DNA of 15,946 nucleotides from Planctomycetaceae bacterium UBA4655 (GTDB taxonomy: Bacteria; Planctomycetota; Planctomycetia; Pirellulales; UBA1268). Each line of letters begins with the position of its first letter. Positions within the stretch are counted from its first letter, which is position 1. The translations under genes were made by a program, and so were the position numbers. The DNA lies in the NCBI GenBank assembly GCA_002405515.1, contig DHLZ01000204.1:1-15946 (forward strand), read 5' to 3'. The notes beneath the pieces were generated by a model. That model did no database searches. It saw nothing but the letters and a program-made list of their open reading frames with translations, and had not been told where the DNA came from. Positions 1,145 through 14,388 of the stretch are shown here, one piece after another.

Positions 1145-1708
1145 TCAGACCGTCAGGTGCGTCACCGCCACGAACCTCGGATCGGAACGGATCGGGTCGA
1201 AATCCGGTTCGATCTGGGTCAGGTCGCGAAACCGCTTGTCGATCGAGATCGCCTTCGTGAGGTGCTCGATCGCCGCCTGCACGTCACCGCCGAGCGAGAG
1301 GTAGCACGACAGATTGTAGTGGAGGATCGGCTCATCGGGCGAGGCGACCAGGCCCTGCTCGAGCACGTCGATCGCCTTCGGCAGCCGGCCGAGCCGCTTG
1401 AAACACCAGCCCAGGCCGAGCCACGCCTCGAGCCGCTTGGGATCGTTTTCCACGACGAGTTCGAACGGGCCGATGGCATCCGCCCAGTGGCCCATCGCCC
1501 GGAGGGCCTCCGCCTCGAGCAGTTTGGCGTCGGGCATCGACCGCGTCGGCTCGGGCAGTTCGTCGATCGTCTCGATCGCCCTGACGAGCAGCACCCGCGC
1601 GGTCTCGGGGGTGGGCCGGTCGCCATCGACCAATAGTTCCGCCAGCTCGACGTATCCAGAGGCCTGTCGCAGGATTGCCTGTCGGCGATTCCGGGTCATG
1701 GCGGTCAT
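1145..1708 (-). CDS. TPR-repeat protein (small, about 187 aa)
   Basis: TPR-like helical repeats, for example WLGLGWCFKRLGRLPKAIDVLEQGL and HYNLSCYLSLGGDVQAAIEHLTKAISIDKRF. An ATG at 1708 is preceded by AGGAG about 10 nt upstream on the minus strand. The ORF-track start at 1747 is a TTG, a less likely alternative. The gene is co-oriented with the aroE-like gene across a 64-bp gap and is probably in the same operon. Confidence 0.6.
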   Translation of the reverse strand: MTAMTRNRRQAILRQASGYVELAELLVDGDRPTPETARVLLVRAIETIDELPEPTRSMPDAKLLEAEALRAMGHWADAIGPFELVVENDPKRLEAWLGLGWCFKRLGRLPKAIDVLEQGLVASPDEPILHYNLSCYLSLGGDVQAAIEHLTKAISIDKRFRDLTQIEPDFDPIRSDPRFVAVTHLTV

Positions 1709-1747
1709 GGCAGTTCCGCTCCTGCTGAAAGCATTCGTCAGTTCCAA

Positions 1748-2006
1748 CCGTTCGACACGAGCGGCTCAGCCCGTGCGGCAGGATCTGCCGGAGTCTTCCT
1801 TGTTTCCCAGCACCTACATCATACCCAGGGTCCGGCGATTGCCGATTCTCCGGACCCCCGTCATACGGATTTTTCTACGGGATTCACGGTCGTTTGGGTC
1901 GCGCGGCGGGCGCCCCGGATTTTTTCCACGAAATGTCGGGCCGGATCGCCACTCTTCTCTTGGGCGGCCGGTTCGGCCGCGGCCGAACGATTCCGGGAGC
2001 CTGCCA
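1748..2006. promoter_or_regulatory. Divergent intergenic/promoter region between the TPR operon (-) and the membrane-protein gene (+), containing hairpins and palindromes
   Basis: GGGTCCGG(1828-1835)...CCGGACCC(1850-1857) forms a perfect 8-bp stem around a 14-nt loop that has an internal cgattgccgatt direct repeat. A near-palindrome ggttcggccgcggccgaacg (about 1967-1988) lies just 5' of the GGGAG RBS at 1994-1998. No promoter consensus could be assigned with confidence. Confidence 0.4.
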
Positions 2007-4268
2007 ATGTTGCGACTGACACTGCGGACGCTGCTCGCCTGGCTCGACGGCGTTCTTTCGGCGGATGAGGCCGATGCCTTCGCCGCGAAGCTCTCTGCCA
2101 GCGGATCGGCCCGGGTGCTCGTCGATCGTATCCGGGCGGTCGTCGCCCATCCCGGGCTCGACTCGCCCAAGGTGGTCGGCAAGGGCCTCGGCGCGGACGC
2201 CAATACCGTCGCCGAATACCTCACCAACTCGCTGCCGGCCGAGGCGGTCGCGGCGTTCGAAATGGTCTGCATCGAGTCCGACGTCCACCTCGCGGAGGTG
2301 GCGTCGTGCCACAGGACGCTCGTGGAGGCCCGCAACTCCCCGCGGGTTTTCGAGCCGCCGGAACCCCATGAGCTTGAACGACTGCTCGCTGCGACGGGCG
2401 GCCTTGCCAGCGGCGCGATCGGCTCGGAACGGTCAAAAGCGAAGCCGGCGGCGGCTTCGCCCGCGGCACCGTCTTCCAGGGCGGCTTCGCCAGCGGCATC
2501 GTTGCCAAAAACGCCGTCACCCGCGGCGGCGTCAACCACGATGAAGGGCTCCAAGACGTCGCCGGTGGCCTGGGCGTCGTTGATTGCGGCGGTGCTCCTG
2601 CTGGGAGCGCTCGCGGGAACGCTTGCCTGGAGGCTCATGCCGAATGAAACCGGCGGAGCGGTGCCAAAAAACAAGGACGCCGTCGCCCTTCGAGAATCGC
2701 CGGCTCCCGCGCCGGTGCCGCCGGCCCCGGCAGACCCGGCCGTGGAAGCGATCCCTGTAGTTTCGCCGGAGCCGGAGCCATCGCTTCCAGCGAAGGAAAA
2801 CGCGGGCCCGAAGCAGGATCTGAAACGGGACGACGCACTCGTCTCGCCGCCGCCGCGCGAAACTGATGCCTCCGTCGCGGCAGTCGGGGCGGAGCCCGCA
2901 CCGGAGCCCGCACCGGACGCTCCGCAGCCGTCGGCCGGCCGCGTGCCCGGGGGCGATGCGCTTGCGATCGGAGCGACCATCCGGCCGCCCGCCACGATTC
3001 CGAAGCAGCCCGCGCCGAACGATCCCAAACCGGCCGATCCTGCACGGAAAGAATCGGGTCCGGCAACACTGCCGGCGAGGAACGACGGGTCGGCGTTTGC
3101 GATCGTCGGCGTCGCCCCGCTTTTCCTGCAACGCATCGGAGATGCCGGCGGTCCGGCCGACTGGAAGGTCGTCGCACCACAGTCGCCGCTTTCCGCATCG
3201 ACCGACCTGCTCGTGCCGGAGGGCTTTTTTCCAACGTGGGCGGTCGGGAAGGCGACGATCCGCGTGATCGGTCCGGCCCGCGTGGTGGTCCGGCCGCGGA
3301 AGGATGCCGCCGCGGAGATCGAGCTCGTCTTTGGACGGGCGATTGTTGGCGGAATCGAGGCCGGGCGACCGATCGCGTTCGTGGCCGGCGATCTTTCGGG
3401 GCGGCTCGACGCCGGCGATCCGATCGGGCTGGAGGTGCGGTTCGATCGACCGTTCGGCAGTGATCCGGAGGCCGTGCCGTCGGCGGCCGTCGGCTCGATT
3501 GCGTTTCCCGAGGGGGGGAGGCTCACGTTCGAGCCCGGGGCCGCCGTCGCTGTTGAGGATGGGCTCATCCGCCCCGACGGCTCGGTCGCGACCGGTGTCG
3601 TGGTGACGGGCCGCGGGGAGGCATCCCGAGGCCTTCCGGATTGGCTGGCGTCGCCGTCCGCCCCACGGCTTCTCGATCGCCTCGCCGCCGAAGCGGTTGC
3701 CCGGAGCCTCGCGACGGCTCCGACGCCTGAAGCCCTCGAGCGGCTGCTCGGGGACAACCGTCTCGAGAATCGCTCCGCCGCCGCCGCGACGCTCGCGGTC
3801 ATGGGCCGGTACGAGCCGCTCGCGGACCTGCTCGCGGAGGAGCAGCAGGGCCTGCGGCTGCCGGCGCGGGCCTGGGAGGCCCTGGAGCAATCGACGGTTC
3901 CACTCGCCCTCGCCCGAGGGCCGACGTCGGCGGGCAGTCTGCTCGCGGCCTTCGAATCGGTCGTCCCGCCGAACGACCGGGATCTCGTGCGGCGGCTGGT
4001 CGTCGGCCTGTCGGGCCAGTCGCTCGCCGAAGGGGGCGACGCGGTCCTGGTCGCCGCCCTCGAACACCCCGTGCTCCTCGTCCGCCGCCTGGCAGCGTCA
4101 CGGCTGCTCGGGGCGGTTCGCCCGGCCGCGGCCGACCGTCTGCGGTACCGGCCGGACGGTCCTCCGGCAGCCCGCGCCGAAGCCGTGAAATGGTGGCGGT
4201 CGCAGCTCGAGAAGGGGCGGATTCGCGGGGGAGCGGAGGGAGGTCTGTCGAACGCCGAAGGGGAGTGA
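2007..4268 (+). CDS. Hypothetical single-pass membrane protein (754 aa) with an anti-sigma-factor-like architecture
   Basis: ATG at 2007 with GGGAG 8 nt upstream. The 1398-2006 part of the long ORF-track entry overlaps the TPR gene antisense and is treated as non-coding. The protein has an N-terminal soluble domain of about 130 aa. A hydrophobic segment follows (VAWASLIAAVLLLGALAGTLAWRL). After it comes a long Pro/Ala-rich linker (PAPAPVPPAPADP...EPAPEPAPDAP...). A beta-rich region resembling a FecR-type domain follows, by eye. C-terminal HEAT-like repeats include LLGDNRLENRSAAAATLAVMG and VAALEHPVLLVRRLAASRLLG. GC3 bias runs throughout. Confidence 0.65.
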   Translation: MLRLTLRTLLAWLDGVLSADEADAFAAKLSASGSARVLVDRIRAVVAHPGLDSPKVVGKGLGADANTVAEYLTNSLPAEAVAAFEMVCIESDVHLAEVASCHRTLVEARNSPRVFEPPEPHELERLLAATGGLASGAIGSERSKAKPAAASPAAPSSRAASPAASLPKTPSPAAASTTMKGSKTSPVAWASLIAAVLLLGALAGTLAWRLMPNETGGAVPKNKDAVALRESPAPAPVPPAPADPAVEAIPVVSPEPEPSLPAKENAGPKQDLKRDDALVSPPPRETDASVAAVGAEPAPEPAPDAPQPSAGRVPGGDALAIGATIRPPATIPKQPAPNDPKPADPARKESGPATLPARNDGSAFAIVGVAPLFLQRIGDAGGPADWKVVAPQSPLSASTDLLVPEGFFPTWAVGKATIRVIGPARVVVRPRKDAAAEIELVFGRAIVGGIEAGRPIAFVAGDLSGRLDAGDPIGLEVRFDRPFGSDPEAVPSAAVGSIAFPEGGRLTFEPGAAVAVEDGLIRPDGSVATGVVVTGRGEASRGLPDWLASPSAPRLLDRLAAEAVARSLATAPTPEALERLLGDNRLENRSAAAATLAVMGRYEPLADLLAEEQQGLRLPARAWEALEQSTVPLALARGPTSAGSLLAAFESVVPPNDRDLVRRLVVGLSGQSLAEGGDAVLVAALEHPVLLVRRLAASRLLGAVRPAAADRLRYRPDGPPAARAEAVKWWRSQLEKGRIRGGAEGGLSNAEGE

Positions 4269-4281
4269 TATGCTCCCCGCC

Positions 4282-4602
4282 ATGCAAATCAACGTCTCAA
4301 CTCGACACGGGCATTTGAGCCCGGCATCTCAGTCCAAGATCAGCTCGAAGGTCTTCCGCCTGAAGCGGTATTTCGACCGCCTGACGGCTCTGAACGTCAC
4401 GGTGGACCTCGAGAATCCGTCGCTGCCGCTGGTGGAGATCATCGCCTCCGCCGAGCACATGCACGACATGGTGGGCCACGAGGTGTCGGCCGATCTTTGG
4501 CGGAGCGTCGACGGCGCGGTTCAGAAACTGGAACAGCAACTCAGGAAGCACAAGGAGAAGGTCCGCGACCACAAGCACGTCCAGAACACGAAGCGTTCCT
4601 GA
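4282..4602 (+). CDS. hpf: Ribosome hibernation promoting factor (short HPF/YhbH/RaiA family)
   Basis: MQINVSTRHG...KVFRLKRYFDRLTALNVTVDLE...ASAEHMHDMV...AVQKLEQQLRKHKEK matches the conserved HPF fold pattern MQlnItG....E..f.KlE+yfdri..v.V.l......A.d.Y.AID.l.dkL.RQL.KHK. An in-frame ATG at 4270 is an alternative start. A GGGGAG motif lies at 4260-4265. The gene starts 13 nt after the stop of the upstream gene. Confidence 0.85.
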   Translation: MQINVSTRHGHLSPASQSKISSKVFRLKRYFDRLTALNVTVDLENPSLPLVEIIASAEHMHDMVGHEVSADLWRSVDGAVQKLEQQLRKHKEKVRDHKHVQNTKRS

Positions 4603-4636
4603 GGCGCGTTCCTGGGGCGGCCTTCCTAATTTCACC

Positions 4637-5113
4637 ATGAAGTTTTCCGATTTTGTGGCGGCGGATGCGATTCGTTCGAGCGTGAAGGCCCGAACGAAAG
4701 AAGGCGTGATCCGGGAGATGGCGACCGCCCTCGTCGAGGCGGGGAAGATTCCCGCCGGCGACATGGAGGGCATCGTCAAGGCGATCATGAAGCGGGAGGA
4801 TCTCGGCAGCACCGGGATCGGCCGCGGCGTCGCCGTCCCCCACACGAAGCACCCGAGCGTGAGCCGGCTGGTCGGCACCGTGGCCGTGAGCCGCGAGGGG
4901 ATCGATTTCGAGAGCCTCGACGGCGAGCCTGTGCAGTTGTTCTTCCTGCTGGTTTCGCCGCCGGATCGGCCGGGCGACCATCTGCGGGCGCTCGAGAACA
5001 TCTCGAGGCAGCTTCGCGACGACTCGTTTTGTGCAACGCTCAAGGCGGCACCCGCCGCGACCGACATCCGGCACCTGCTGGAGGAGGCCGACAGTCATGG
5101 GCTCGTTTCTTGA
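4637..5113 (+). CDS. ptsN: PTS EIIA-Ntr-type (fructose/nitrogen family IIA) regulatory protein
   Basis: 158 aa. Conserved region GIGRGVAVPHTKH carries the phosphorylatable His loop, GIAIPH-like. The length and layout (...MKREDLGSTGIG...VQLFFLLVSP) are typical of PtsN. It sits immediately after hpf, as in canonical rpoN-hpf-ptsN clusters. Confidence 0.85.
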   Translation: MKFSDFVAADAIRSSVKARTKEGVIREMATALVEAGKIPAGDMEGIVKAIMKREDLGSTGIGRGVAVPHTKHPSVSRLVGTVAVSREGIDFESLDGEPVQLFFLLVSPPDRPGDHLRALENISRQLRDDSFCATLKAAPAATDIRHLLEEADSHGLVS

Positions 5114-5162
5114 TACAAGTGAATGAATTGGCGGATTTGCGTGACGTGGTTTGGCAAGCGTG

Positions 5163-5441
5163 ATGTCGGAACGGACCGTGGTTCGTCAGGTCGTGGTGGG
5201 CATGCGGCAGGGGCTTCACGCCCGGCCGGCGGACATGCTTGCGCGCGAGGCGAGGAAGTGGCAGTCGCGGATCGAACTCGTGGCGGGCTCGCAGCGGGCC
5301 GACGGCAAGAGCATCCTCGAGGTGCTCACCCTGGCGGCCGAGGCGGGAACGTACGTCGTGATCGAGGCGACCGGGCCCGATGCCGATGAGGCGATCGACG
5401 CCATCGGCGGGCTCTTCGAGCGGAATTTCGACGAAGACTGA
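5163..5441 (+). CDS. ptsH: Phosphocarrier protein HPr/NPr
   Basis: The GLHARPA active-site His motif is present. A downstream ...RADGKSILEVL... segment has the Ser46-like GKS, consistent with HprK-regulated HPr. About 92 aa from the ATG at 5163. The ORF track extends to a TTG at 5151 and there is a GTG at 5160. No strong SD. Confidence 0.85.
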   Translation: MSERTVVRQVVVGMRQGLHARPADMLAREARKWQSRIELVAGSQRADGKSILEVLTLAAEAGTYVVIEATGPDADEAIDAIGGLFERNFDED

Positions 5442-5450
5442 AGGAACATA

Positions 5451-5482
5451 GGGAACGGGAACACTCGGGAACGGTAACACTC
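5451..5482 (+). repeat. Two tandem copies of a 16-bp direct repeat (GGGAACGGGAACACTC / GGGAACGGTAACACTC) just 3' of the HPr stop, followed by AGGAG
   Basis: Read directly. GGAAC recurs five times within 5443-5476. The region is locally AT-richer than its surroundings. It lies in a 292-bp spacer before ptsI. That spacer also holds an 8-bp-stem hairpin ATCGCATC-cccgt-GATGCGAT at about 5583-5603. Confidence 0.6.
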
Positions 5483-5732
5483 AGGAGATAGAGCCAAGGC
5501 CCCTGCCGATGGGCGCCGGGAGATCCTGATCGCAGCGCGTCGCTTCGCGATCTCTCCACGGACTCGCCCCGCGGTGGCCGATACATCGCATCCCCGTGAT
5601 GCGATCCACGCCGGCCGGTGCCGGCGAGATCGAACATGCCTTCGATTTCGATGCCGCCAAAAACGGCCATCGGAGCGAAAGGTGCATTGAGACTCGCCCG
5701 AGGCGACCGGGTCGGCGTGCGGAAAGCGCGCC

Positions 5733-7472
5733 ATGATCAAACTTCAGGGAATCGCGGTCTCGTCCGGCGTCACGATCGGCGAGGCGCTCGTGCTCGACGC
5801 AGAGGGCTTTCGGATCCCTCGGCGGTTCGTCGCCCGGTCGGCCGTGGACACCGAACTCGAGCGGCTCTCCACGGCCATCGGCGACACCACCCGCGAGATC
5901 GAGCGCAACCGCGACGCCATCCGCGCGGAGCTGGGTCAGCAGTACGCCGCCATCTTCGACGCCCACCTCGCGATGCTTCACGACGAGCGGCTCCAGGCCG
6001 AACTCGTCAGCGCGGTCCGTGACAAGAACCTCTGGCCGGAATACGCGGTCAGCCGCACGCTCCGCCGCTACGCGAAGGCCTTCCAGAATCTCGACAACCA
6101 CATCGCCCAGCGGGCCCACGACATCTACGACATCGAGAAGAGCCTGCTGCGGAACCTGCTCGGCCAGCGGAGCGAGACGCTCGCGGCCGTCTCCCAGCCG
6201 GTGATCGTGCTCGCCCACAACCTCACCCCGAGCGAGACCGCGAAGCTCGACCGGCGGTTCGTCCAGGGATTCGCGACGGAGCTCGGCGGGCCCGGCAGCC
6301 ATACCGCGATCGTGGCCGAAGGTCTCGAAATCCCGGCGGTGGTCGGGATCGGGCCGTTCTTGAGCGACGTCTCGGGCGGGGAGCCCGTGATCCTCGACGG
6401 CAACCAGGGGGTCGTGATCCTGCAGCCCGACGAGGAGACGATCGCCAGGTATCGGCTCGAGGTCGAGGCGGCACGAACGGCGGCCGTGAACCTCGGGCGG
6501 CTCCGCGACCTTCCCGCCGAGACGATCGACGGCGTCCGGATCCGGATCCACGGCAACATCGAGTTTCCGAACGAGGTCGAGCAGTGCATCCGCCGCGGCT
6601 GCGACGGCATCGGCCTGTACCGCACCGAGTTTCTCTACCTCACGAGCCCCCGGGAGCCGACGGAAGAGGACCACTTCGCCGCCTACAGCGAGGTCGTGAG
6701 GGCGATGGGCGGCAAGCCGGTGGTGATCCGCACGCTCGACCTGGGCGCCGACAAGATGCTCACCGAGACGACGCCCGAGGAGGAGAGGAATCCGTGCCTC
6801 GGCCTGCGGAGCATCCGACTGTCGCTGCGGCAGCTGCCTATGTTCCGGACGCAGTTGCGGGCGATCCTGCGGGCGAGCGCCCTCGGCGACGTGCGGGTGA
6901 TGTTTCCGCTCATCTCGACGATCGTCGAATTGCGTCAGGCGCGGATGGTGCTGGCCGACGTCATGGAAGACCTCGCCGAGCACGGGATCGCGTTCAACCG
7001 CGACATGCAGGTCGGCATGATGGTGGAAACGCCGGCCGCCGCGGTCATGCTCGACACGTTCGTGGGGGACGTGGACTTCGTGTCGATCGGCACGAACGAC
7101 CTCATTCAATACACGTTGGCCGTGGACCGTGGCAACAAGGAGGTCGCGGACCTCTACAACGCCTGCGACCCGGCTGTGCTGCGGCTCTTGAAGCGGTCGG
7201 TGCAGACCGCGAAGGAGGCGAACGTTCCCGCGAACGTGTGCGGTCAGATGAGCGGCAGCGTCATGTACACGCAGCTGCTTCTGGGCATGGGCCTCGAGCA
7301 GTTGAGCGTTCCCGCAAGCGCGATTCCCGAGGTGAAGCAGCTCTGTCGGAGCGTTTCGCTGGAGGAATGTCGCGCGATCGCGGAGAGGGTGCTGGAAATG
7401 GACAGCGCCCAGCAGGTCAAGTCGTTTTTACGGGATCAGTTGCGCCGCGTGCTCGCCCAGACTGTGGCGTAG
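5733..7472 (+). CDS. ptsI: Phosphoenolpyruvate-protein phosphotransferase (PTS Enzyme I), without an N-terminal GAF domain
   Basis: 579 aa. The N-terminus MIKLQGIAVSSGVTIGEALVL matches EI. GGPGSHTAIVAEGLEIPAVVG is the His-domain signature, and the C-terminal PEP-utilizer/TIM-barrel motifs are present (...GIGLYRTEFLYL...NDLIQYTLAVDR...). The protein starts directly with the EI N-domain, so it is not PtsP-type. Confidence 0.95.
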   Translation: MIKLQGIAVSSGVTIGEALVLDAEGFRIPRRFVARSAVDTELERLSTAIGDTTREIERNRDAIRAELGQQYAAIFDAHLAMLHDERLQAELVSAVRDKNLWPEYAVSRTLRRYAKAFQNLDNHIAQRAHDIYDIEKSLLRNLLGQRSETLAAVSQPVIVLAHNLTPSETAKLDRRFVQGFATELGGPGSHTAIVAEGLEIPAVVGIGPFLSDVSGGEPVILDGNQGVVILQPDEETIARYRLEVEAARTAAVNLGRLRDLPAETIDGVRIRIHGNIEFPNEVEQCIRRGCDGIGLYRTEFLYLTSPREPTEEDHFAAYSEVVRAMGGKPVVIRTLDLGADKMLTETTPEEERNPCLGLRSIRLSLRQLPMFRTQLRAILRASALGDVRVMFPLISTIVELRQARMVLADVMEDLAEHGIAFNRDMQVGMMVETPAAAVMLDTFVGDVDFVSIGTNDLIQYTLAVDRGNKEVADLYNACDPAVLRLLKRSVQTAKEANVPANVCGQMSGSVMYTQLLLGMGLEQLSVPASAIPEVKQLCRSVSLEECRAIAERVLEMDSAQQVKSFLRDQLRRVLAQTVA

Positions 7473-9819: not shown

Positions 9820-11883
9820 TCAAGCGGTTGGCGGGGCAGGCGGACTGGTGATGGCCTGTGGTGACACCTCGGCCCTCTGCTGGCGGACGAGCTGGGCGAG
9901 CAGCACCTGCACGAGCCCGCCGCCCTCGACGCCGTCGCCCGCCCCGCCGACGATGATGTCGGGCGTGATCTTCAGCCCGGCCGTCGATATCGCCTTCATG
10001 ACCTCGACGGTGGTGACGCCCTGGGCGGTGAGCGCGTCCACCTGGTCGCGGTAGGCCTTGGCCTGCGCCTCTCCCTTCGACTGCACGACGCTCGCCTCGG
10101 CATCGCCGATCTGCTTCGTCTTCGAGGCCTCGGCCTCGGCGATCAGTTGCACCTTCGCGGCGTCGCCCCTCGCTCGCTCCTCCACCTGCCGGGCCTCGTG
10201 CTGCGCCACCTTGATGCCCGCCTCGGCCGAGATGATCTTCACCTGAGCGTCGGCCTCGGCCCTCGTCTTCTCGAACTCGATCCGCCGCTGCTCCGCGTCC
10301 TTCTTCGCGTCGTACATCGACTTTTCCTGCTCGGCGAGGTTCTTCTGCTGGGTGGTCTTCATGAGGGCCTCGGGCAGGTGGATGTTGGTGATCATCACCG
10401 ACACCACCTCCACCCGATACTTCGCGAGATCCTGCCGGACCGCCTCCTCGGCCGCCTTCTGCTCCTCGGCGCGATTCTGCTGGTAGGCGATGGCCGGCGA
10501 TCGCGAGACCTGGGCCCGGAAGATGCCGTCGATCTGGGGATGGATGACGTTCGTCTCGAGTTCCTCCACGGAGCCGATCTTCTGCACGACGTACGGCGCG
10601 TTCTCCGGCAGGATCCGGTATTGGCAGCGGACTTCCACCTTCATCTCGAAGCCGTCGTGCGACACGACCTGGAACGGGTCGAATCCCGTGATCTCCCGCG
10701 ACTTGGCCTTCTCGGCGCTCCAGTCGACCGACCGGGTCGTCGTGGGGATGATGATCACCGAGTAGGCGAGGGGATTGATGTTGTAGGCGCCCGGGCCGAG
10801 CACCTCCCGTTGGATGCCGCGGAAGCCCTTCGGCACGACGTGCCTCGTCCGCGAACCGTCGGGATGGGGGCCGTCGGTCTCCGGCTCGAACTCCGACGGA
10901 TCCTTTCCGATGTTGGAGATGAGCACGGCCACCTCGCCCTGGCGGACGAGCGCCTGCTTCCTCTTCGAAACGGCGAACATGTACGGATTGATGTAGTAGG
11001 TGCCCGGCGTCAGGATGTTTTCCTGCGGACCCCTTTTTCCACCCTTGTCGAGGAACAGCTGTCCGTCCTGGAAGCTGTTGACGTCCTCGGGCGTGTGCAC
11101 CACGACGTCGCTGCGGGCCATCGACAGGCCGTCGCGGGCGTCAACGATGCCGATCTCGTTCTCGCCGATGCGGATGGCGTCGCTGATCTCGACCTTGAAG
11201 ATCTCGGTGTTGATGTTGTAGGTGCCCGGCCTGAGGAAATCGATCTGCGGCCCCTTCTGCCCGCCGTTCTTCAGGAAGGCCTCCGCCTTCTGGAAATTGT
11301 CGTGGTCGGGGACGCTTCGGCCGAGCAGCTGGCCTGGCGCGAGCGGGGCGCCGTCGGCCGCCGTGATCACGCCGATCTGCCCCTCCGGCACGACCGTCTT
11401 CACGATCTTCGTCACCTTGAAAAGCCCCGGGTGGATCTTGAACGTGCCGTTGGTCAGGAACCGAAGCTGCTTGCCGCGGATGCCGCCGTGCGCGAGAAAC
11501 TCCACCGGGAGCTGGAAGTTGTCGTGCTGCTGGCCTGCGGGATCGTCGGCGAAGATGCGGCCGGCGGGAAGGGCGGCGCCGTCGGTCGCCTCCACGATGC
11601 CGAGCTCGTTGGCGCCGATCGTGATGAACCGCGGCTTCGCGACGACCCGCGTGATCGGCCAGAGGATGAAGTGGAGTCCCGGCGCGAGATACTCCGCCTT
11701 GAATCCCACCTCGCCCTGGAGCGCGAAGACCCGTCCGGGCGAGAGCTCCTTGCCGATGAACCTCCGCTCGAGAACGGCGATCCGATCCGAGCCGACGTTG
11801 ACGAGGAAGCGGGAGAGCAGGACGAGTCCCGCGACGACGCCGAAAAGTGAGGCGACGAGAACGACGATCTGCTGTTCGGTCAT
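9820..11883 (-). CDS. Flotillin-like SPFH/band-7 membrane protein (687 aa) with four extra tandem ~70-aa repeats
   Basis: ATG at 11883 with AGGAAAG 4 nt upstream. The N-terminal TM segment is IVVLVASLFGVVAGLVLL. The C-terminal half is a canonical SPFH core plus a flotillin EA-rich coiled coil (AEQEKSMYDAKKDAEQRRIEFEKTRAEADAQVKIISAEAGIKVAQHEARQ...LIAEAEASKTKQIGDAEA...). Between them sit four repeats, each showing G(I/V)(V/I)....DG..........D.NxFQ...FL..GG.+G.Q...L.PGTY.IN...F.V. The part of the ORF-track entry upstream of 11883 is an Arg-rich extension overlapping the ubiD 3' end and is not called. Confidence 0.85.
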   Translation of the reverse strand: MTEQQIVVLVASLFGVVAGLVLLSRFLVNVGSDRIAVLERRFIGKELSPGRVFALQGEVGFKAEYLAPGLHFILWPITRVVAKPRFITIGANELGIVEATDGAALPAGRIFADDPAGQQHDNFQLPVEFLAHGGIRGKQLRFLTNGTFKIHPGLFKVTKIVKTVVPEGQIGVITAADGAPLAPGQLLGRSVPDHDNFQKAEAFLKNGGQKGPQIDFLRPGTYNINTEIFKVEISDAIRIGENEIGIVDARDGLSMARSDVVVHTPEDVNSFQDGQLFLDKGGKRGPQENILTPGTYYINPYMFAVSKRKQALVRQGEVAVLISNIGKDPSEFEPETDGPHPDGSRTRHVVPKGFRGIQREVLGPGAYNINPLAYSVIIIPTTTRSVDWSAEKAKSREITGFDPFQVVSHDGFEMKVEVRCQYRILPENAPYVVQKIGSVEELETNVIHPQIDGIFRAQVSRSPAIAYQQNRAEEQKAAEEAVRQDLAKYRVEVVSVMITNIHLPEALMKTTQQKNLAEQEKSMYDAKKDAEQRRIEFEKTRAEADAQVKIISAEAGIKVAQHEARQVEERARGDAAKVQLIAEAEASKTKQIGDAEASVVQSKGEAQAKAYRDQVDALTAQGVTTVEVMKAISTAGLKITPDIIVGGAGDGVEGGGLVQVLLAQLVRQQRAEVSPQAITSPPAPPTA

Positions 11884-11980
11884 GACTTTCCTTGCTCGGA
11901 GTGGCTGCCGTGCGGCCACGGCACGGACGTCGGAGGATACTACCTCCGCGGGGTGCCCGTTGCACGGCAGGCATCGGCCT

Positions 11981-13879
11981 TCAGCCGAGGAGCCCGGCGA
12001 GCGGGCCCCCGCGGACGCAGAGGGCATCGACCTTCGCCGTGACCGCCGGGTCTTCCTCGACCGGCGGAGCGTGGTGGGGCTTGAGCCGGGCGTCGATGAC
12101 GAGCGGGCCCTCGCAGCCCCAGTGCTTCTGACGGACCCTCGCCGCGACACCGTGGACGTCGGCCGCGGGGTTCGACCGCGTGAACGTCACCCAGAGAAAG
12201 TTCTCGAGGCTCGCGGCCGAAAAGCCGGAGTCGTCCACGACCACGATGAGCGGCCATGGACGCAGCGGGTTGTCCGCGTGGATCGCATCGCAGAGCCGTT
12301 GGATCCCGGCCGACCAGGGGGAGGCGGCCGCGAGGCCGGCGAGCGACGTGGCGGCAGGGGCCGCGTCGTCCGAGGCGAGCGTCGGCGCGGGATCGATCCT
12401 CGGGCCCTCGATCGCGACGACGCCCGGCAGGCAGACCCTCGGGTTGCGGAAGCCGTCGGGGAGGGCGATGCCGGCGGGCAGTTCCCGCGAGAGGCTGCGG
12501 ATCGCCGGCCCACGGGCGGCCACCACGAGCTTCGAGCCGGCGTTGAGCCCGCTGCCGGAGTAGTCGAGCGTGTCGATCGTGGTCTCGGTGTGGAAGTGGC
12601 AGTCGCGCCGCCAGTCGGCCCGCGACAGCACGTGCGCGAGGAAGGGCCGGATGTCGTGGGCATCGAGGCCCGGCGCATCCCCCCCCGACACGATGAAGAG
12701 ATACTTCGCGAGCGACAGCTGCCCTTGGCCGAGGATCGCGGAGGCCTGCGTGAGCAGCTCGGCCGGGCGGTTCGACCGCTGCCAGGGCAGGTAGCGCTCG
12801 CTCCCGACGGCAAGCAGAAGCGGATGCACTCCCGACGCATCGACGGCATGAACGCTCCGCACGCCAGGCAGCACCGTCGGGATCACCGGTCCGGTCAGCT
12901 CGTGCACGAGCCAGCCGAAGAGCGTGTCTTCCTGCGGCGGGCGGCCGACCACCGTCACCGGCCAGATCGCCCCCTCGCGGTGCCAGACCCGCTCGACCTG
13001 CATCACCGGAAAATCGTGCCGTTTGGCATAGTAGCCGAGGTGGTCGCCGAACGGCCCCTCCGGCTTCGTCGTTCCCGGCTGCACCGTCCCCTCGATCACG
13101 AAATCGGCGTCGGCATAGATCGCGGGTCGTCCTCGCCTCGCGATCATCGGGATGCGGTGGCCCGCAAGCGCCCCGGCGAAGAGCAGCTCGGAGAGCCCCT
13201 CGGGCAGCGGCATGACGGCGGCGACGGCCATCGCCGGCGAGCCGCCGACGAACACGTTCACCTTCAGTGGCTCGCCGCGGGCGAGCGCCGCGGCATGATG
13301 GACGCCGATGCCGCGGTGGAGCTGGTAGTGGAGGCCGATCTCGCGGTCGGGCAGGTAGTCGTTGCCCGCCAGCTGCACCCGGTACATCCCGAGGTTCGAG
13401 TGTTTCGTGCCCGGCCGGTCGGGGTCTTCGGTGTAGACCGCCGGGAGCGTGACGAACGGACCGCCGTCGCCGGGCCAGCCCGTCACCTTGGGCAGCTGAG
13501 AAAGGGGGATCGAGTGGGCGACCGCCGGGCCCGATTTCACGCGACGCGGCAGCATCGAGATCGCGTCGATCGGGCTTCGCCAGTACCGCCACGGCTTCTT
13601 CAATGCTTCAGCCGGGTCGATCTTGAGCTCCACGAGCCGCTTCACCCGATCGAGCGTGCGGTGGAAGATCCGCTCGATCCGCTTTTGCGTGCCGTAGAGG
13701 TTCACGAGCACGGGGAAGGCCGTGCCAGCCGGTCGCGAGAAGAGCACCGCCGGCCCGCCGACCCGGAACAGCCGCCGCTGGATCTCCGCGATTTCGAGGT
13801 GCGGATCGACCGGATGGTCGACGACCACGAGTTCCCCCTCGCGGGCGAGCCGATCGACGCAGGATCGAAGCGATCGCAT
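11981..13879 (-). CDS. ubiD: UbiD-family (de)carboxylase; 3-octaprenyl-4-hydroxybenzoate carboxy-lyase / menaquinone MqnL-like
   Basis: [44 protein letters not shown] is collinear with the E. coli UbiD N-terminus, [49 protein letters not shown]. Full length is about 632 aa. The ATG at 13879 is the first Met compatible with the family N-terminus. The 13880-13984 extension in the ORF track lies inside the palindrome. Confidence 0.9.
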   Translation of the reverse strand: [632 protein letters not shown]

Positions 13880-13965
13880 AAAAAGGTGCCAGCCACCAAA
13901 TCTGGGTAAAATACCTTCGGCTTTATAGACATCTTGCCCAGATTTGGTGGCTGGCACCTTTTTTT
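13880..13965. repeat. Perfect 27-bp inverted repeat (13880-13906 / 13937-13963; AAAAAGGTGCCAGCCACCAAATCTGGG) around a 30-nt AT-rich spacer, with A5/T7 tails
   Basis: Read directly. Right arm CCCAGATTTGGTGGCTGGCACCTTTTT is the exact reverse complement of the left arm. The spacer taaaataccttcggctttatagacatcttg contains TATAGA/TATAAA-like hexamers in both orientations. The element fills the whole divergent intergenic space, 0 nt from the ubiD start codon and 13 nt from the osmC GTG. Confidence 0.9.
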
Positions 13966-13977
13966 GAAAGGACGCAG

Positions 13978-14388
13978 GTGGCACGAATCACGACGACGTA
14001 CGAGGGGAAGCTCCGCTGTCGGGCCCAGCACGGGCCTGCGGGCGAGACGGTGCTCACTGACACCCCGGCCGACGGCCAGGGCCGCAGCGAGGCGTTTTCG
14101 CCGACCGACCTCGTGGGAGTGGCCCTCGGGGCGTGCATGATGACGATCATCGGCATCGTCGCCGAGCGGCACGGGCTCGCGCTGGCCGGCATGAAGGCCG
14201 ACACCGTCAAGGAGATGAGCAAGGAGCCGCCGCGGCGGATCACTGTGCTCCGCACGACGCTCACGATCCCGCTCCCGCCGGATCATCCGAAGCGACACCT
14301 CATCGAGCAGGCGGCGCTCACCTGCCCCGTCCACAAGAGCCTCGCCGCCGGCATCGACGCCGCCGTCGACTTCGTCTGGACGGGCTGA
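13978..14388 (+). CDS. OsmC/Ohr-family protein (organic hydroperoxide resistance / OsmC-like)
   Basis: 136 aa. ...EAFSPTDLVGVALGACMMTIIGIVAERHG... and the ...LTCPVHKSL... Cys pair are typical of the OsmC/Ohr fold. GTG start with AAAGGA 6 nt upstream. Confidence 0.8.
   Translation: MARITTTYEGKLRCRAQHGPAGETVLTDTPADGQGRSEAFSPTDLVGVALGACMMTIIGIVAERHGLALAGMKADTVKEMSKEPPRRITVLRTTLTIPLPPDHPKRHLIEQAALTCPVHKSLAAGIDAAVDFVWTG

Follow-up and report, generated by a model that had tools for sequence, protein, structure and literature searches.

The cages built by SPFH proteins (flotillin, prohibitin, stomatin, HflK/C and erlin) and the vault have recently been recognised as a single structural family, in which the vault is distinguished mainly by its many SPFH1 modules and by the lack of a membrane anchor. 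At the waist of the vault, its two halves come together with their N-termini. The closest described relatives of the protein analysed here fall on both sides of this divide.

Flotillins (flotillin-1/2 in eukaryotes; FloT/YuaG and YqiK in bacteria; the 'SPFH2' subfamily described in 2009 by Hinderhofer et al., PMC2636767) are attached to the membrane N-terminally and have one SPFH1 within the SPFH/Band_7 domain, long EA-rich helices and, typically though not universally, an NfeD2-type operon partner (YuaF/YqiJ); the only 'giant' prokaryotic flotillins of the same study are expanded in their coiled coils, not by N-terminal modules. The other solved cages, those of HflK/C, prohibitins, stomatin/QmcA and erlins, also contain one SPFH1 only, belong to a different family at the C-terminus, and have FtsH, NfeD and m-AAA as known partners. 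The eukaryotic major vault protein (MVP; PDB 4V60, 4HL8, 9Z4W, 3GF5) consists of a free, waist-forming N-terminus, nine SPFH1-type modules, an SPFH2 'shoulder', a long cap helix and a cap-disk C-terminus. According to PMC12915596, MVP repeats R1-R9 are homologous to SPFH1 and the shoulder is SPFH2; PMC13607799 likewise equates the repeats with SPFH1. Prokaryotic homologues of MVP have been reported from Myxococcales, Cytophagales and Oscillatoriales (PMC3762200; bioRxiv 10.1101/872010) and from Asgard and other archaea (PMC12962969, PMC13607799). These homologues were identified by their likeness, in sequence or structure, to MVP itself; they unite MVP-repeat/SPFH1 modules with a shoulder of the Band-7 type and a tail of helices, and some of them are annotated as 'band 7 protein'.

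Here we describe a bacterial protein of 687 aa that is intermediate in architecture between flotillin and the vault, encoded in a window of 15,946 nt from Planctomycetaceae bacterium UBA4655 (contig DHLZ01000204.1). It resembles flotillins in its N-terminal membrane attachment, SPFH/Band_7 domain, long EA-rich helices and, on a phmmer match to flotillin-2, probably also in its C-terminal segment, but contains five SPFH1 modules, with ~300 extra residues between the anchor and SPFH2, and lacks both a Pfam Flot match and an adjacent NfeD-type partner gene; nor were any of the known partners of the other cages found beside the gene. With MVP, it shares the order of SPFH1-type modules, SPFH2 shoulder and long cap helix, but differs in having five modules rather than nine, a transmembrane (TM) helix in place of the free N-terminus, a flotillin-like rather than a cap-disk C-terminus, and a short helix insert (DNFQ..FL) in three of the modules (R1-R3). 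The Asgard MVP homologue has five repeats as well; a TM anchor, a flotillin-type tail and a copy number of 1-13 do not figure in the available descriptions of the prokaryotic homologues.

Domain architecture

The gene occupies positions 9820..11883 of the minus strand, with the ATG at 11883 and the stop codon at 9820-9822 (ORF and translation; all features below are on the same strand). The encoded protein comprises, in this order, an N-terminal TM helix, modules R0-R4, SPFH2, a helix of ~110 residues and a flotillin-like C-terminus, so that five SPFH1-type modules precede SPFH2 and there is no single SPFH1-SPFH2 unit immediately after the anchor. The single TM helix proposed in an earlier note on this DNA is borne out: AF2 places a helix at aa 3-26 (11806..11877) with pLDDT 88-96, and the 19-aa hydrophobic window at this site is conserved in 120 homologs. 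The membrane-proximal module R0 (aa 26-86; 11626..11808), delineated by hhalign and by beta strands in both structural models, is a short form without the helix insert; it contains the PGLHFILWPI motif that had been taken as the start of an SPFH domain, but spans about 60 aa rather than the ~80 aa suggested. The four ~70-aa repeats previously placed at ~10680-11640 correspond to R1-R4 (10735-11625). Among these, R1 (aa 87-163; 11395..11625; BLASTP, hhalign 99.9%, pLDDT >93) carries the insert DNFQ..FL..GG.RG.Q, R2 (aa 164-237; 11173..11394) and R3 (aa 238-311; 10951..11172) are delimited by BLASTP, hhalign and AF2, and the divergent R4 (aa 312-383; 10735..10950), supported by hhalign and Pfam Band_7, includes an acidic loop at about aa 330-350 that is modelled with low confidence. 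The alpha/beta 'shoulder', SPFH2 (aa 384-505; 10369..10734), completes the SPFH domain and is followed by a long EA-rich helical region, coiled-coil or cap-helix-like (aa 505-634; 9982..10371; AF2 helices 505-617 and 620-634), and by a Gly-rich segment, a short hydrophobic helix and a Pro-rich tail (aa 635-687; 9823..9981; pLDDT <50 for 636-684), which by analogy may sit where the C-termini form the crown in SPFH cages of known structure.

The only Pfam family found in the whole protein is Band_7 (PF01145; 89.2 bits, above the curated cut-off of 23.6; E 4.3e-25, aa 356-536); R0-R3 are covered by no Pfam family. The SPFH domain and the coiled coil come last, as had been noted, but the former overlaps with the fourth repeat: the Band_7 match begins at aa 356, inside R4, at profile position 16, and R4 alone matches Band_7 positions 19-49. 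All the modules, each ~60-75 aa long, are homologous to each other. BLASTP aligns R1-R3 pairwise at 39-41% identity (E 6e-16 to 6e-18; R1 against R2 and R3, 6e-16 and 2e-15) and links only the C-terminal half of R4 to the other repeats (E 2e-5 to 7e-7); profile comparison extends the homology of R4 across its whole length. In hhalign, every pair among R0-R4 scores a probability of 95-99.9% (E 2.5e-8 to 3e-35), including 96-98% for R0 against R1-R4 (E 2e-9 to 2e-13) and 95-98% for R4 against R0-R3, and each module scores below 1% against the SPFH2 control. Self-BLASTP of the whole protein returns the identity match only, the repeats being seen by segment-wise BLASTP and profile comparison. Since Band_7 starts inside R4 and the modules are mutually homologous, R4 is itself, on sequence grounds, the SPFH1 part of the canonical domain, with R0-R3 as four extra copies of it, in agreement with the count of extra copies in the earlier note.

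The repeat motifs described previously hold in part. The ending L.PG.Y.IN...F.V is present in all four of R1-R4 (TNGTFKIHPGLFKV in R1), but the core D.NxFQ...FL..GG.+G.Q is limited to R1-R3, and R4 retains G.RG.Q only. The repeats are also visible in the DNA, where GTTGTAGGTGCCCGGC occurs exactly at 11215-11230, with 1 mismatch at 10993-11008 and with 2 mismatches at 10780-10795 (3 matches against 0.15 expected; this number was reached in 0/200 shuffles), and members of a 35-nt family are found at 10757, 10970, 11192 and 11414, spaced by 213-222 nt. The duplications are old, since the repeats are overall only 54-57% identical in nucleotide sequence.

At the C-terminus, aa 559-664 match residues 289-401 of human flotillin-2 in a phmmer comparison (E 8.5e-5). 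The Pfam Flot model matches neither the protein nor any of 59 diverse relatives, and the NCBIfam flotillin models do not match the protein. Family members are labelled only 'SPFH domain-containing', 'YqiK' or 'HflC' in the sources, which agrees with the earlier view of a poorly annotated architecture.

Structural similarity to the major vault protein

The AF2 model of the full-length protein has a mean pLDDT of 85.6, with values >93 over most of aa 1-500; the model of aa 26-505 alone, built from an alignment of 24 sequences, has a mean of 87.7. In the model, the SPFH1 (beta) and SPFH2 (alpha/beta) folds are superposable on solved SPFH domains, the tandem modules superpose on repeats R1-R7 of MVP and are stacked in the same rod-like manner, and the shoulder is followed, as in MVP, by a long cap helix (505-617 in AF2). 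When the full model was compared with the PDB using Foldseek, full-length MVP chains took the first 12 places (E 7e-16 to 4e-12 over 730-830 aligned columns), with prohibitin (5e-12) and flotillin (1.4e-9) ranking lower. The model without the TM helix and the long helix gave the same outcome, with MVP in the top 8 places (E 5e-12 to 3.5e-10) and a TMq of 0.49 over 538 columns for the rat vault chain 4v60_A; ordinary SPFH structures superpose on R4 and SPFH2 only (~196 columns). As modelled, the module fold is the MVP repeat fold, and the whole protein is structurally most similar to MVP. The earlier note missed the vault-repeat fold, as it did the identity of R4 as the canonical SPFH1.

No such connection is seen in the sequence. 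The families Vault (PF01505), Vault_2/3/4 (PF17794-6) and MVP_shoulder (PF11978), all five of which are borne by every true MVP listed, have no match in the protein at E <= 1, in the single repeats at E <= 10 or in 59 diverse relatives at E <= 0.01. A profile search of PDB sequences yielded weak prohibitin matches and no MVP, and the pooled repeat profile did not match rat MVP, a query that had been checked against PDB 4hl8_A (1909 bits over 1-861). Comparison of the family profile with a vertebrate MVP profile was not significant (hhalign E 0.023, probability 2%); a PGTY motif closes the module in both families and falls in register in this non-significant alignment. Kinship with MVP is therefore not demonstrable at the sequence level.

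Relatives, copy number and topology

Searches retrieved 2692 homologs, and the public collection contains the identical protein P0001. The 4-module form is found across several phyla at 57-90% identity, and Band_7 is matched by 58 of the 59 diverse relatives. A repeat HMM applied to 109 diverse relatives with a length of 500 aa or more detected 1-13 modules per protein, with a correlation between protein length and module number of r = 0.81 and a modal period of 73 aa. The 13-14-module members carry a fused VWA domain, and relatives with more modules occur in cultured Geomonas species, the protein of Geomonas subterranea/oryzae being 829-837 aa long.

The bulk of the protein probably faces the cytoplasm, a placement made because of two features. 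Lysine and arginine are biased around the TM helix (means of 0.075 on the N side and 1.7 on the C side in 120 homologs), which, by the positive-inside rule, puts the repeats inside; and the long relatives P0122, P0138 and P0139 start with a signal-peptide-like segment, followed by ~60 residues, a TM helix and then the repeats.

Gene neighbourhood

The gene is flanked by a UbiD-family gene and rplU. The former (11981-13984, minus strand) lies upstream in the same orientation, separated by the 97-nt gap reported earlier, and, again as reported, NfeD is absent among the window ORFs scanned. Adjacency to ubiD is not conserved: UbiD, rplU, RNase G, OsmC and MgsA adjoin the gene only in L001, which is the same organism, and the UbiD adjacency is missing even where the flotillin is 83-89% identical, a lack of conservation that the earlier note had not registered. 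A functional tie to quinone biosynthesis was rejected because this neighbourhood is confined to one genome. Partners were sought by clustering the six-frame ORFs with a length of 90 aa or more in about 80 related loci, which were found with an alignment of 35 closer sequences. Across these loci, no partner gene is conserved beyond a single lineage; an MFS transporter shared by 13 Micavibrio-like loci makes up the largest genuine cluster in the flanks, and the other clusters are shadow ORFs of the gene itself.

A proposed multi-module membrane cage and its alternatives

We conclude, with a probability of roughly 0.72, that the protein is a TM-anchored flotillin-family scaffold with fivefold SPFH1 that most likely forms a tall membrane cage on the cytoplasmic face. 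Lined up next to one another on the inner side of the membrane, many copies would form a ring; the SPFH1 modules, stacked as five rings, would give a beta-sheet barrel wall similar to the vault body, and the top would be closed off by the helices and C-termini. The resulting dome would be taller than a normal flotillin cage, very roughly by 2-3 nm per extra module (a rough estimate), and would fence off a membrane patch along with a larger volume above it, its height being set by the copy number, 1-13 in the relatives. We infer these ring and cage steps because of the analogy with the solved SPFH cages (HflK/C, flotillin, stomatin, prohibitin and erlin) and the vault.

A bolder extension, which we offer only tentatively, is that such proteins form membrane-tethered 'half-vaults', that is, closed inner-membrane SPFH domes with walls of stacked SPFH1 rings like those of the vault barrel, the height of which follows a copy number from 1 to at least 13, and that these represent the membrane-bound prokaryotic counterpart of the eukaryotic vault and might even be its ancestral form. 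If so, the vault would have arisen by loss of the anchor and pairing of two halves, and the VWA domain of the 13-14-module members would echo the VWA-bearing vault partner PARP4.

The fold, the homology and the concept are already known, so that what is added here is an architecture and not a new principle. Nonetheless, the family is large, conserved and essentially unannotated, with such genes carried by thousands of bacteria, and joins a vault-type multi-module wall to the flotillin anchor and tail; because of these features and the range of 1-13 modules, it provides a natural intermediate series for studying what determines the height of the wall and the volume enclosed, and how the vault architecture originated. 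The cultured Geomonas carriers open the cage idea to cryo-EM.

Among the alternatives, an unlikely one is a periplasm-facing protease modulator similar to HflK/C or prohibitin, in which the stack of repeats would serve as a stalk or wall around the periplasmic part of the protease. Many members are labelled 'regulator of protease activity HflC' by JGI, and an M48 peptidase gene is located divergently upstream in Bdellovibrio and Micavibrio-like loci. Such labels, however, are automatic COG transfers; the M48 neighbour, no more than a weak lead, turns up in just a few of the ~80 loci compared, all from these two lineages, and is absent from the window, and FtsH, HtpX and NfeD are not conserved nearby in those loci. 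Furthermore, the C-terminus is flotillin-like rather than HflK/C-like, and the charge bias, together with the second TM helix of the relatives with signal peptides, argues for cytoplasmic repeats.

It is quite improbable that the protein is a true bacterial orthologue of MVP that forms free, closed, soluble vault particles instead of the proposed membrane cage. Both models find their best structural matches among MVP chains, the modules are superposable on those of MVP, and bacterial MVP homologues have been reported from three orders (PMC3762200; bioRxiv 10.1101/872010). Against orthology, the protein has a conserved hydrophobic TM helix at the very N-terminus, the part that meets at the waist in vaults; none of the five Pfam signatures of real MVPs is present, the profile-profile comparison is not significant, Pfam scores the shoulder as Band_7, and the tail matches flotillin-2.

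That the modules are an ordinary, unrelated repeat of a beta-sandwich or adhesin type (such as CshA) joined to a flotillin without any SPFH kinship is very hard to sustain. Pfam CshA_repeat does match parts of modules in 8 of the 59 diverse relatives, with P0122 giving the best E value (1.6e-13), and R0-R3 taken singly are recognised by no Pfam SPFH model, but the 687-aa window protein has no CshA_repeat match, R0-R3 are homologous to the Band_7-covered R4, and the MVP repeats on which the modules superpose are equated with SPFH1 in PMC12915596 and PMC13607799. An artefact, that is, a collapsed or expanded repeat array or a frameshifted pseudogene, can practically be dismissed: tandem repeats misassemble easily and the contig is metagenome-assembled, but the repeats are too divergent in DNA for misassembly, the ORF is uninterrupted, an identical protein is encoded on a second contig, and intact repeats are seen in thousands of orthologues, with full-length four-module forms from many lineages on contigs of up to 9 Mb.

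Start site and sequence context

A Shine-Dalgarno-like sequence, AAGGAAAG (11887..11894, minus strand; direct reading), lies 4 nt 5' of the ATG; a longer ORF with a GTG start (to 12150) would overlap the upstream gene. Recent horizontal acquisition in this genome is ruled out because the GC3 of the gene (0.914) is like that of its neighbours (0.84-0.93), so that the gene is compositionally native. When the surroundings of the gene were scanned for promoters and terminators, no sigma-70-like site was detected, and terminator-like sites were as frequent as in the background. The 97-nt spacer between the UbiD-family gene and the flotillin gene folds to -44.9 kcal/mol, with a z of only -1.8.

Tandem SPFH1-type modules in a membrane-anchored protein

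The 687-aa protein encoded by the flotillin-family ORF of the window (reverse strand, from the ATG at 11883 to the stop at 9820) starts with a transmembrane (TM) helix (aa 3–26) that is followed by five modules resembling the beta half of the SPFH domain (SPFH1), namely, R0 (aa 26–86), R1 (aa 87–163), R2 (aa 164–237), R3 (aa 238–311), and R4 (aa 312–383). In BLASTP comparisons, R1–R3 are 39–41% identical to each other (E 6e-16 to 6e-18), only the C-terminal half of R4 matches these three, and R0 hardly matches any other module. When module profiles from a 118-sequence family alignment were compared using hhalign, all 10 pairs among R0–R4 were significant (probability 95–99.9%, E 2.5e-8 to 3e-35), whereas the control comparison of each module with the next SPFH2 segment, the alpha/beta half of the domain, stayed below 1%, so that the tandem repeats reported in the earlier note are real. 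The D.NxFQ..FL..GG.+G.Q element is an insert with a helix that is present in R1–R3 only. The repeats are visible in the DNA as well, as had been claimed: the block quoted in that note occurs three times, against 0.15 expected (0 of 200 shuffles reach three), and a 35-nt family recurs with a period of 213–222 nt along the repeats. Overall, the DNA identity between repeats is only 54–57%, which indicates old duplications; the leftover similarity reflects motif codons conserved in a GC3-saturated gene.

The full-length AlphaFold2 model, built on the same alignment, has a mean pLDDT of 85.6, with values above 93 across nearly all of aa 1–500; a second model, limited to aa 26–505, has a pLDDT of 87.7. 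In the full-length model, R1, R2, and R3 each have a short helix between the first strand and the other four, and beyond the modules lie an alpha/beta SPFH2, a helix (aa 505–617), and a low-confidence tail. In a Foldseek search of the PDB with this model, the best twelve matches are all to MVP (major vault protein), the shell protein of the eukaryotic vault (E 7e-16 to 4e-12, 730–830 columns), which outranks prohibitin, erlin, HflK/C, flotillin, and stomatin. After removal of the TM helix and the long helix, the best eight matches are still MVP (E 5e-12 to 3.5e-10). The rat vault structure 4v60_A aligns over 538 columns (TMq 0.49), compared with just ~196 columns for ordinary SPFH proteins, so that a run of about four modules fits onto the vault repeats as a single rigid body. 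Both the fold and the stacking of the modules are, as modeled, vault-like.

Relationship to flotillins and the major vault protein

The sole Pfam match in the protein is Band_7, at aa 356–536 from profile position 16, so that the canonical SPFH domain begins inside R4. By itself, R4 matches Band_7 positions 19–49; singly, R0–R3 have no Pfam match even at E ≤ 10. Thus, R4 is the SPFH1 half of an ordinary domain, and R0–R3 are four further copies. The layout proposed in the earlier note, in which a complete domain follows an SPFH-like stretch and four repeats, therefore holds with respect to the four extra copies but not with respect to the last of its parts, R4 already belonging to the domain. 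The C-terminal part of the protein matches residues 289–401 of human flotillin-2 by sequence (E 8.5e-5), the only informative match among PDB sequences; Pfam Flot and the NCBIfam models do not match the 687-aa protein.

The repeats R1–R9 of MVP, numbered separately from the modules described here, have been described as homologous to SPFH1, the shoulder as SPFH2, and the cap helix as the SPFH coiled coil (PMC12915596). ECOD-based work equates the module at the N-terminus of SPFH proteins from archaea with a single MVP repeat (PMC13607799), and MVP homologues have been described in Myxococcales, Cytophagales, and Oscillatoriales (PMC3762200; bioRxiv 10.1101/872010) and, with five repeats, in Asgard archaea (PMC12962969). 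In a survey of SPFH proteins from prokaryotes, the only 'giant' flotillins to be mentioned have expanded coiled coils (PMC2636767), and our literature search, of limited range, turned up no account of proteins that combine a TM anchor and a flotillin tail with tandem SPFH1 modules.

The protein is MVP-like by structure, yet it is no demonstrable member of the MVP family by sequence. None of the Pfam families that occur in true MVPs, namely, Vault, Vault_2/3/4, and MVP_shoulder, was detected in the protein, in its single repeats, or in 59 diverse relatives, and a family-profile search did not find MVP among PDB sequences. Comparison of the family profile with a vertebrate MVP profile by hhalign (rat MVP sequence verified against PDB 4hl8_A) yielded only an E of 0.023 and a probability of 2%, the best local alignment placing R2 on MVP R3, in register at the common PGTY motif. 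Furthermore, vaults have a free N-terminal waist, whereas the window protein has a conserved N-terminal TM helix that is incompatible with such a waist. Because of this helix and the lack of an MVP sequence signature, we assign the protein to the SPFH superfamily, nearest to the flotillins, as a variant with several SPFH1 modules and a wall like that of the vault. The original observation is thus confirmed and its interpretation supported. Two points can be added: the module is that repeated in the vault, and the architecture, with its evolvable module number, is intermediate between flotillin and vault.

Topology and proposed assembly

Among 120 homologs, the N-terminal stub (~5 residues) contains on average 0.075 K/R, compared with 1.7 in the 15 residues past the TM helix, and long relatives consist of a signal-peptide-like start, ~60 residues, a TM helix, and then the repeats. 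From this charge bias and layout, we infer that the repeats, SPFH2, and helices are probably cytoplasmic. Behind the TM anchor, the protein stacks five SPFH1 modules, which are followed by a single SPFH2, a long helix, and a flotillin-like tail. By analogy with all solved SPFH assemblies and the vault, the copies would associate side by side into a ring. Its wall would be a beta barrel built from the SPFH1 layers, with SPFH2 as a belt, the helices as a roof that tapers, and the C-termini as a crown. Such an assembly would stand as a dome on the inner membrane face, four module layers taller than a flotillin cage, and would enclose a patch of membrane together with a larger lumen.

Relatives and variable module number

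A word-indexed search retrieved 2692 homologs, the best 120 of which are 72–90% identical and ~680 aa long; source names are only 'SPFH domain-containing', 'YqiK', or 'HflC'. An exhaustive search of 50%-identity representatives gave 2400 matches (297 with E ≤ 1e-30) of up to 1802 aa. Counting only full modules and excluding R0, a repeat HMM detected 1–13 modules per relative among 109 representatives with a length of 500 aa or more, the number correlating with protein length (r = 0.81; modal period 73 aa). Most of the close family has four modules; five are found in some members of ~750 aa that are ~70% identical. Among the named carriers are cultured Geomonas subterranea and G. oryzae (829–837 aa) and, at 1802 aa, a Symploca cyanobacterium.

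The 4-module form is 57–89% identical across distant phyla (loci L006–L085 from GTDB representative genomes), being found in Pirellulales and Planctomycetaceae, Phycisphaerales, Bdellovibrionota, Micavibrio and other Alphaproteobacteria, Myxococcota, Melainabacteria, and Opitutae; such sequence conservation points to unusually strong constraint or horizontal spread. Predatory lineages account for many of the carriers, and almost all of the records are MAGs.

The relatives with 13–14 modules, P0122 (1802 aa, Symploca sp. SIO2E6; VWA at aa 1594–1747) and P0124 (1793 aa; VWA at aa 1592–1746), have a von Willebrand factor A (VWA) domain at their end; VWA is present in 4 of the 59 diverse relatives. 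In eukaryotic vaults, a VWA domain is carried by the minor protein PARP4, a parallel that may be coincidental. In 8 of the 59, Pfam CshA_repeat, a streptococcal surface-adhesin repeat, matches portions of SPFH1-like modules (best E 1.6e-13; for example, P0122 aa 1009–1065), but it does not match the window protein; the similarity may reflect either distant relatedness or chance resemblance in a Gly-rich beta motif.

Genomic context

A Shine-Dalgarno-like AAGGAAAG, found by sequence inspection, lies 4 nt upstream of the ATG at 11883 on the reverse strand. The window is 68% G+C, and the GC3 of the flotillin gene (0.914) agrees with that of its neighbors (0.84–0.93), so that the gene is compositionally native, an observation that stands beside the possible horizontal spread of the 4-module protein. 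Housekeeping genes were found on both sides in the window ORF scan: aroE, a TPR protein, hpf, a PTS EIIA-2 protein, ptsI, an RNase E/G-family gene, and rplU on one, and a UbiD-family decarboxylase, OsmC, and MgsA on the other. No NfeD gene was found among the scanned ORFs, and, as noted earlier, the UbiD-family gene (11981–13984) is on the same reverse strand, ending 97 nt upstream of the flotillin gene. The top NCBIfam match of its product is TIGR03701, a menaquinone-pathway decarboxylase, at 353 bits, under the 495.9-bit cut-off; only the cut-off of the generic UbiD subfamily model is cleared, and a ~175-aa C-terminal extension follows the Pfam UbiD_C domain. The 97-nt spacer (11884–11980, reverse strand) can be folded as a long imperfect hairpin (-44.9 kcal/mol) that lacks a U-run and is not clearly more stable than those of shuffled sequences (z -1.8; 8 of 200).

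Clustering of all flank ORFs of ~80 related loci revealed no partner gene conserved past single lineages, so that the flotillin gene behaves as a stand-alone unit. The window neighbors, including UbiD, adjoin it only in a second contig of the same organism and are not adjacent even where the flotillin is 83–89% identical. The link to quinone biosynthesis that the adjacency had suggested is thus unsupported. A Peptidase_M48 gene lies divergently upstream only in Bdellovibrio and Micavibrio-like loci (L002, 5774–7081, reverse strand; L004, 4221–6623, reverse strand; also L013, L018, L022, L029, L073, and L078), encoding 435 aa in the Bdellovibrio MAG and ~800 aa in Micavibrio-like genomes, and is absent from the window and the remaining lineages compared. 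This neighbor may hint at the protease link typical of SPFH proteins; for the protein itself, such a link is a weakly supported possibility.

Elsewhere in the window, two long ORFs overlap on opposite strands (1398–4268, forward, 956 aa; 1814–3802, reverse, 662 aa), with zero Pfam matches for either and no NCBIfam match for the 956-aa ORF. At 4270–7472 (forward strand), hpf, PTS EIIA-2 (PtsN-like), a small ORF, and ptsI form a cluster; the 88-aa ORF (5123–5389), which lies where an HPr/NPr gene would be expected, matches neither Pfam nor NCBIfam, and the hpf/PtsN-like/ptsI cluster is a nitrogen-PTS-like regulatory set.
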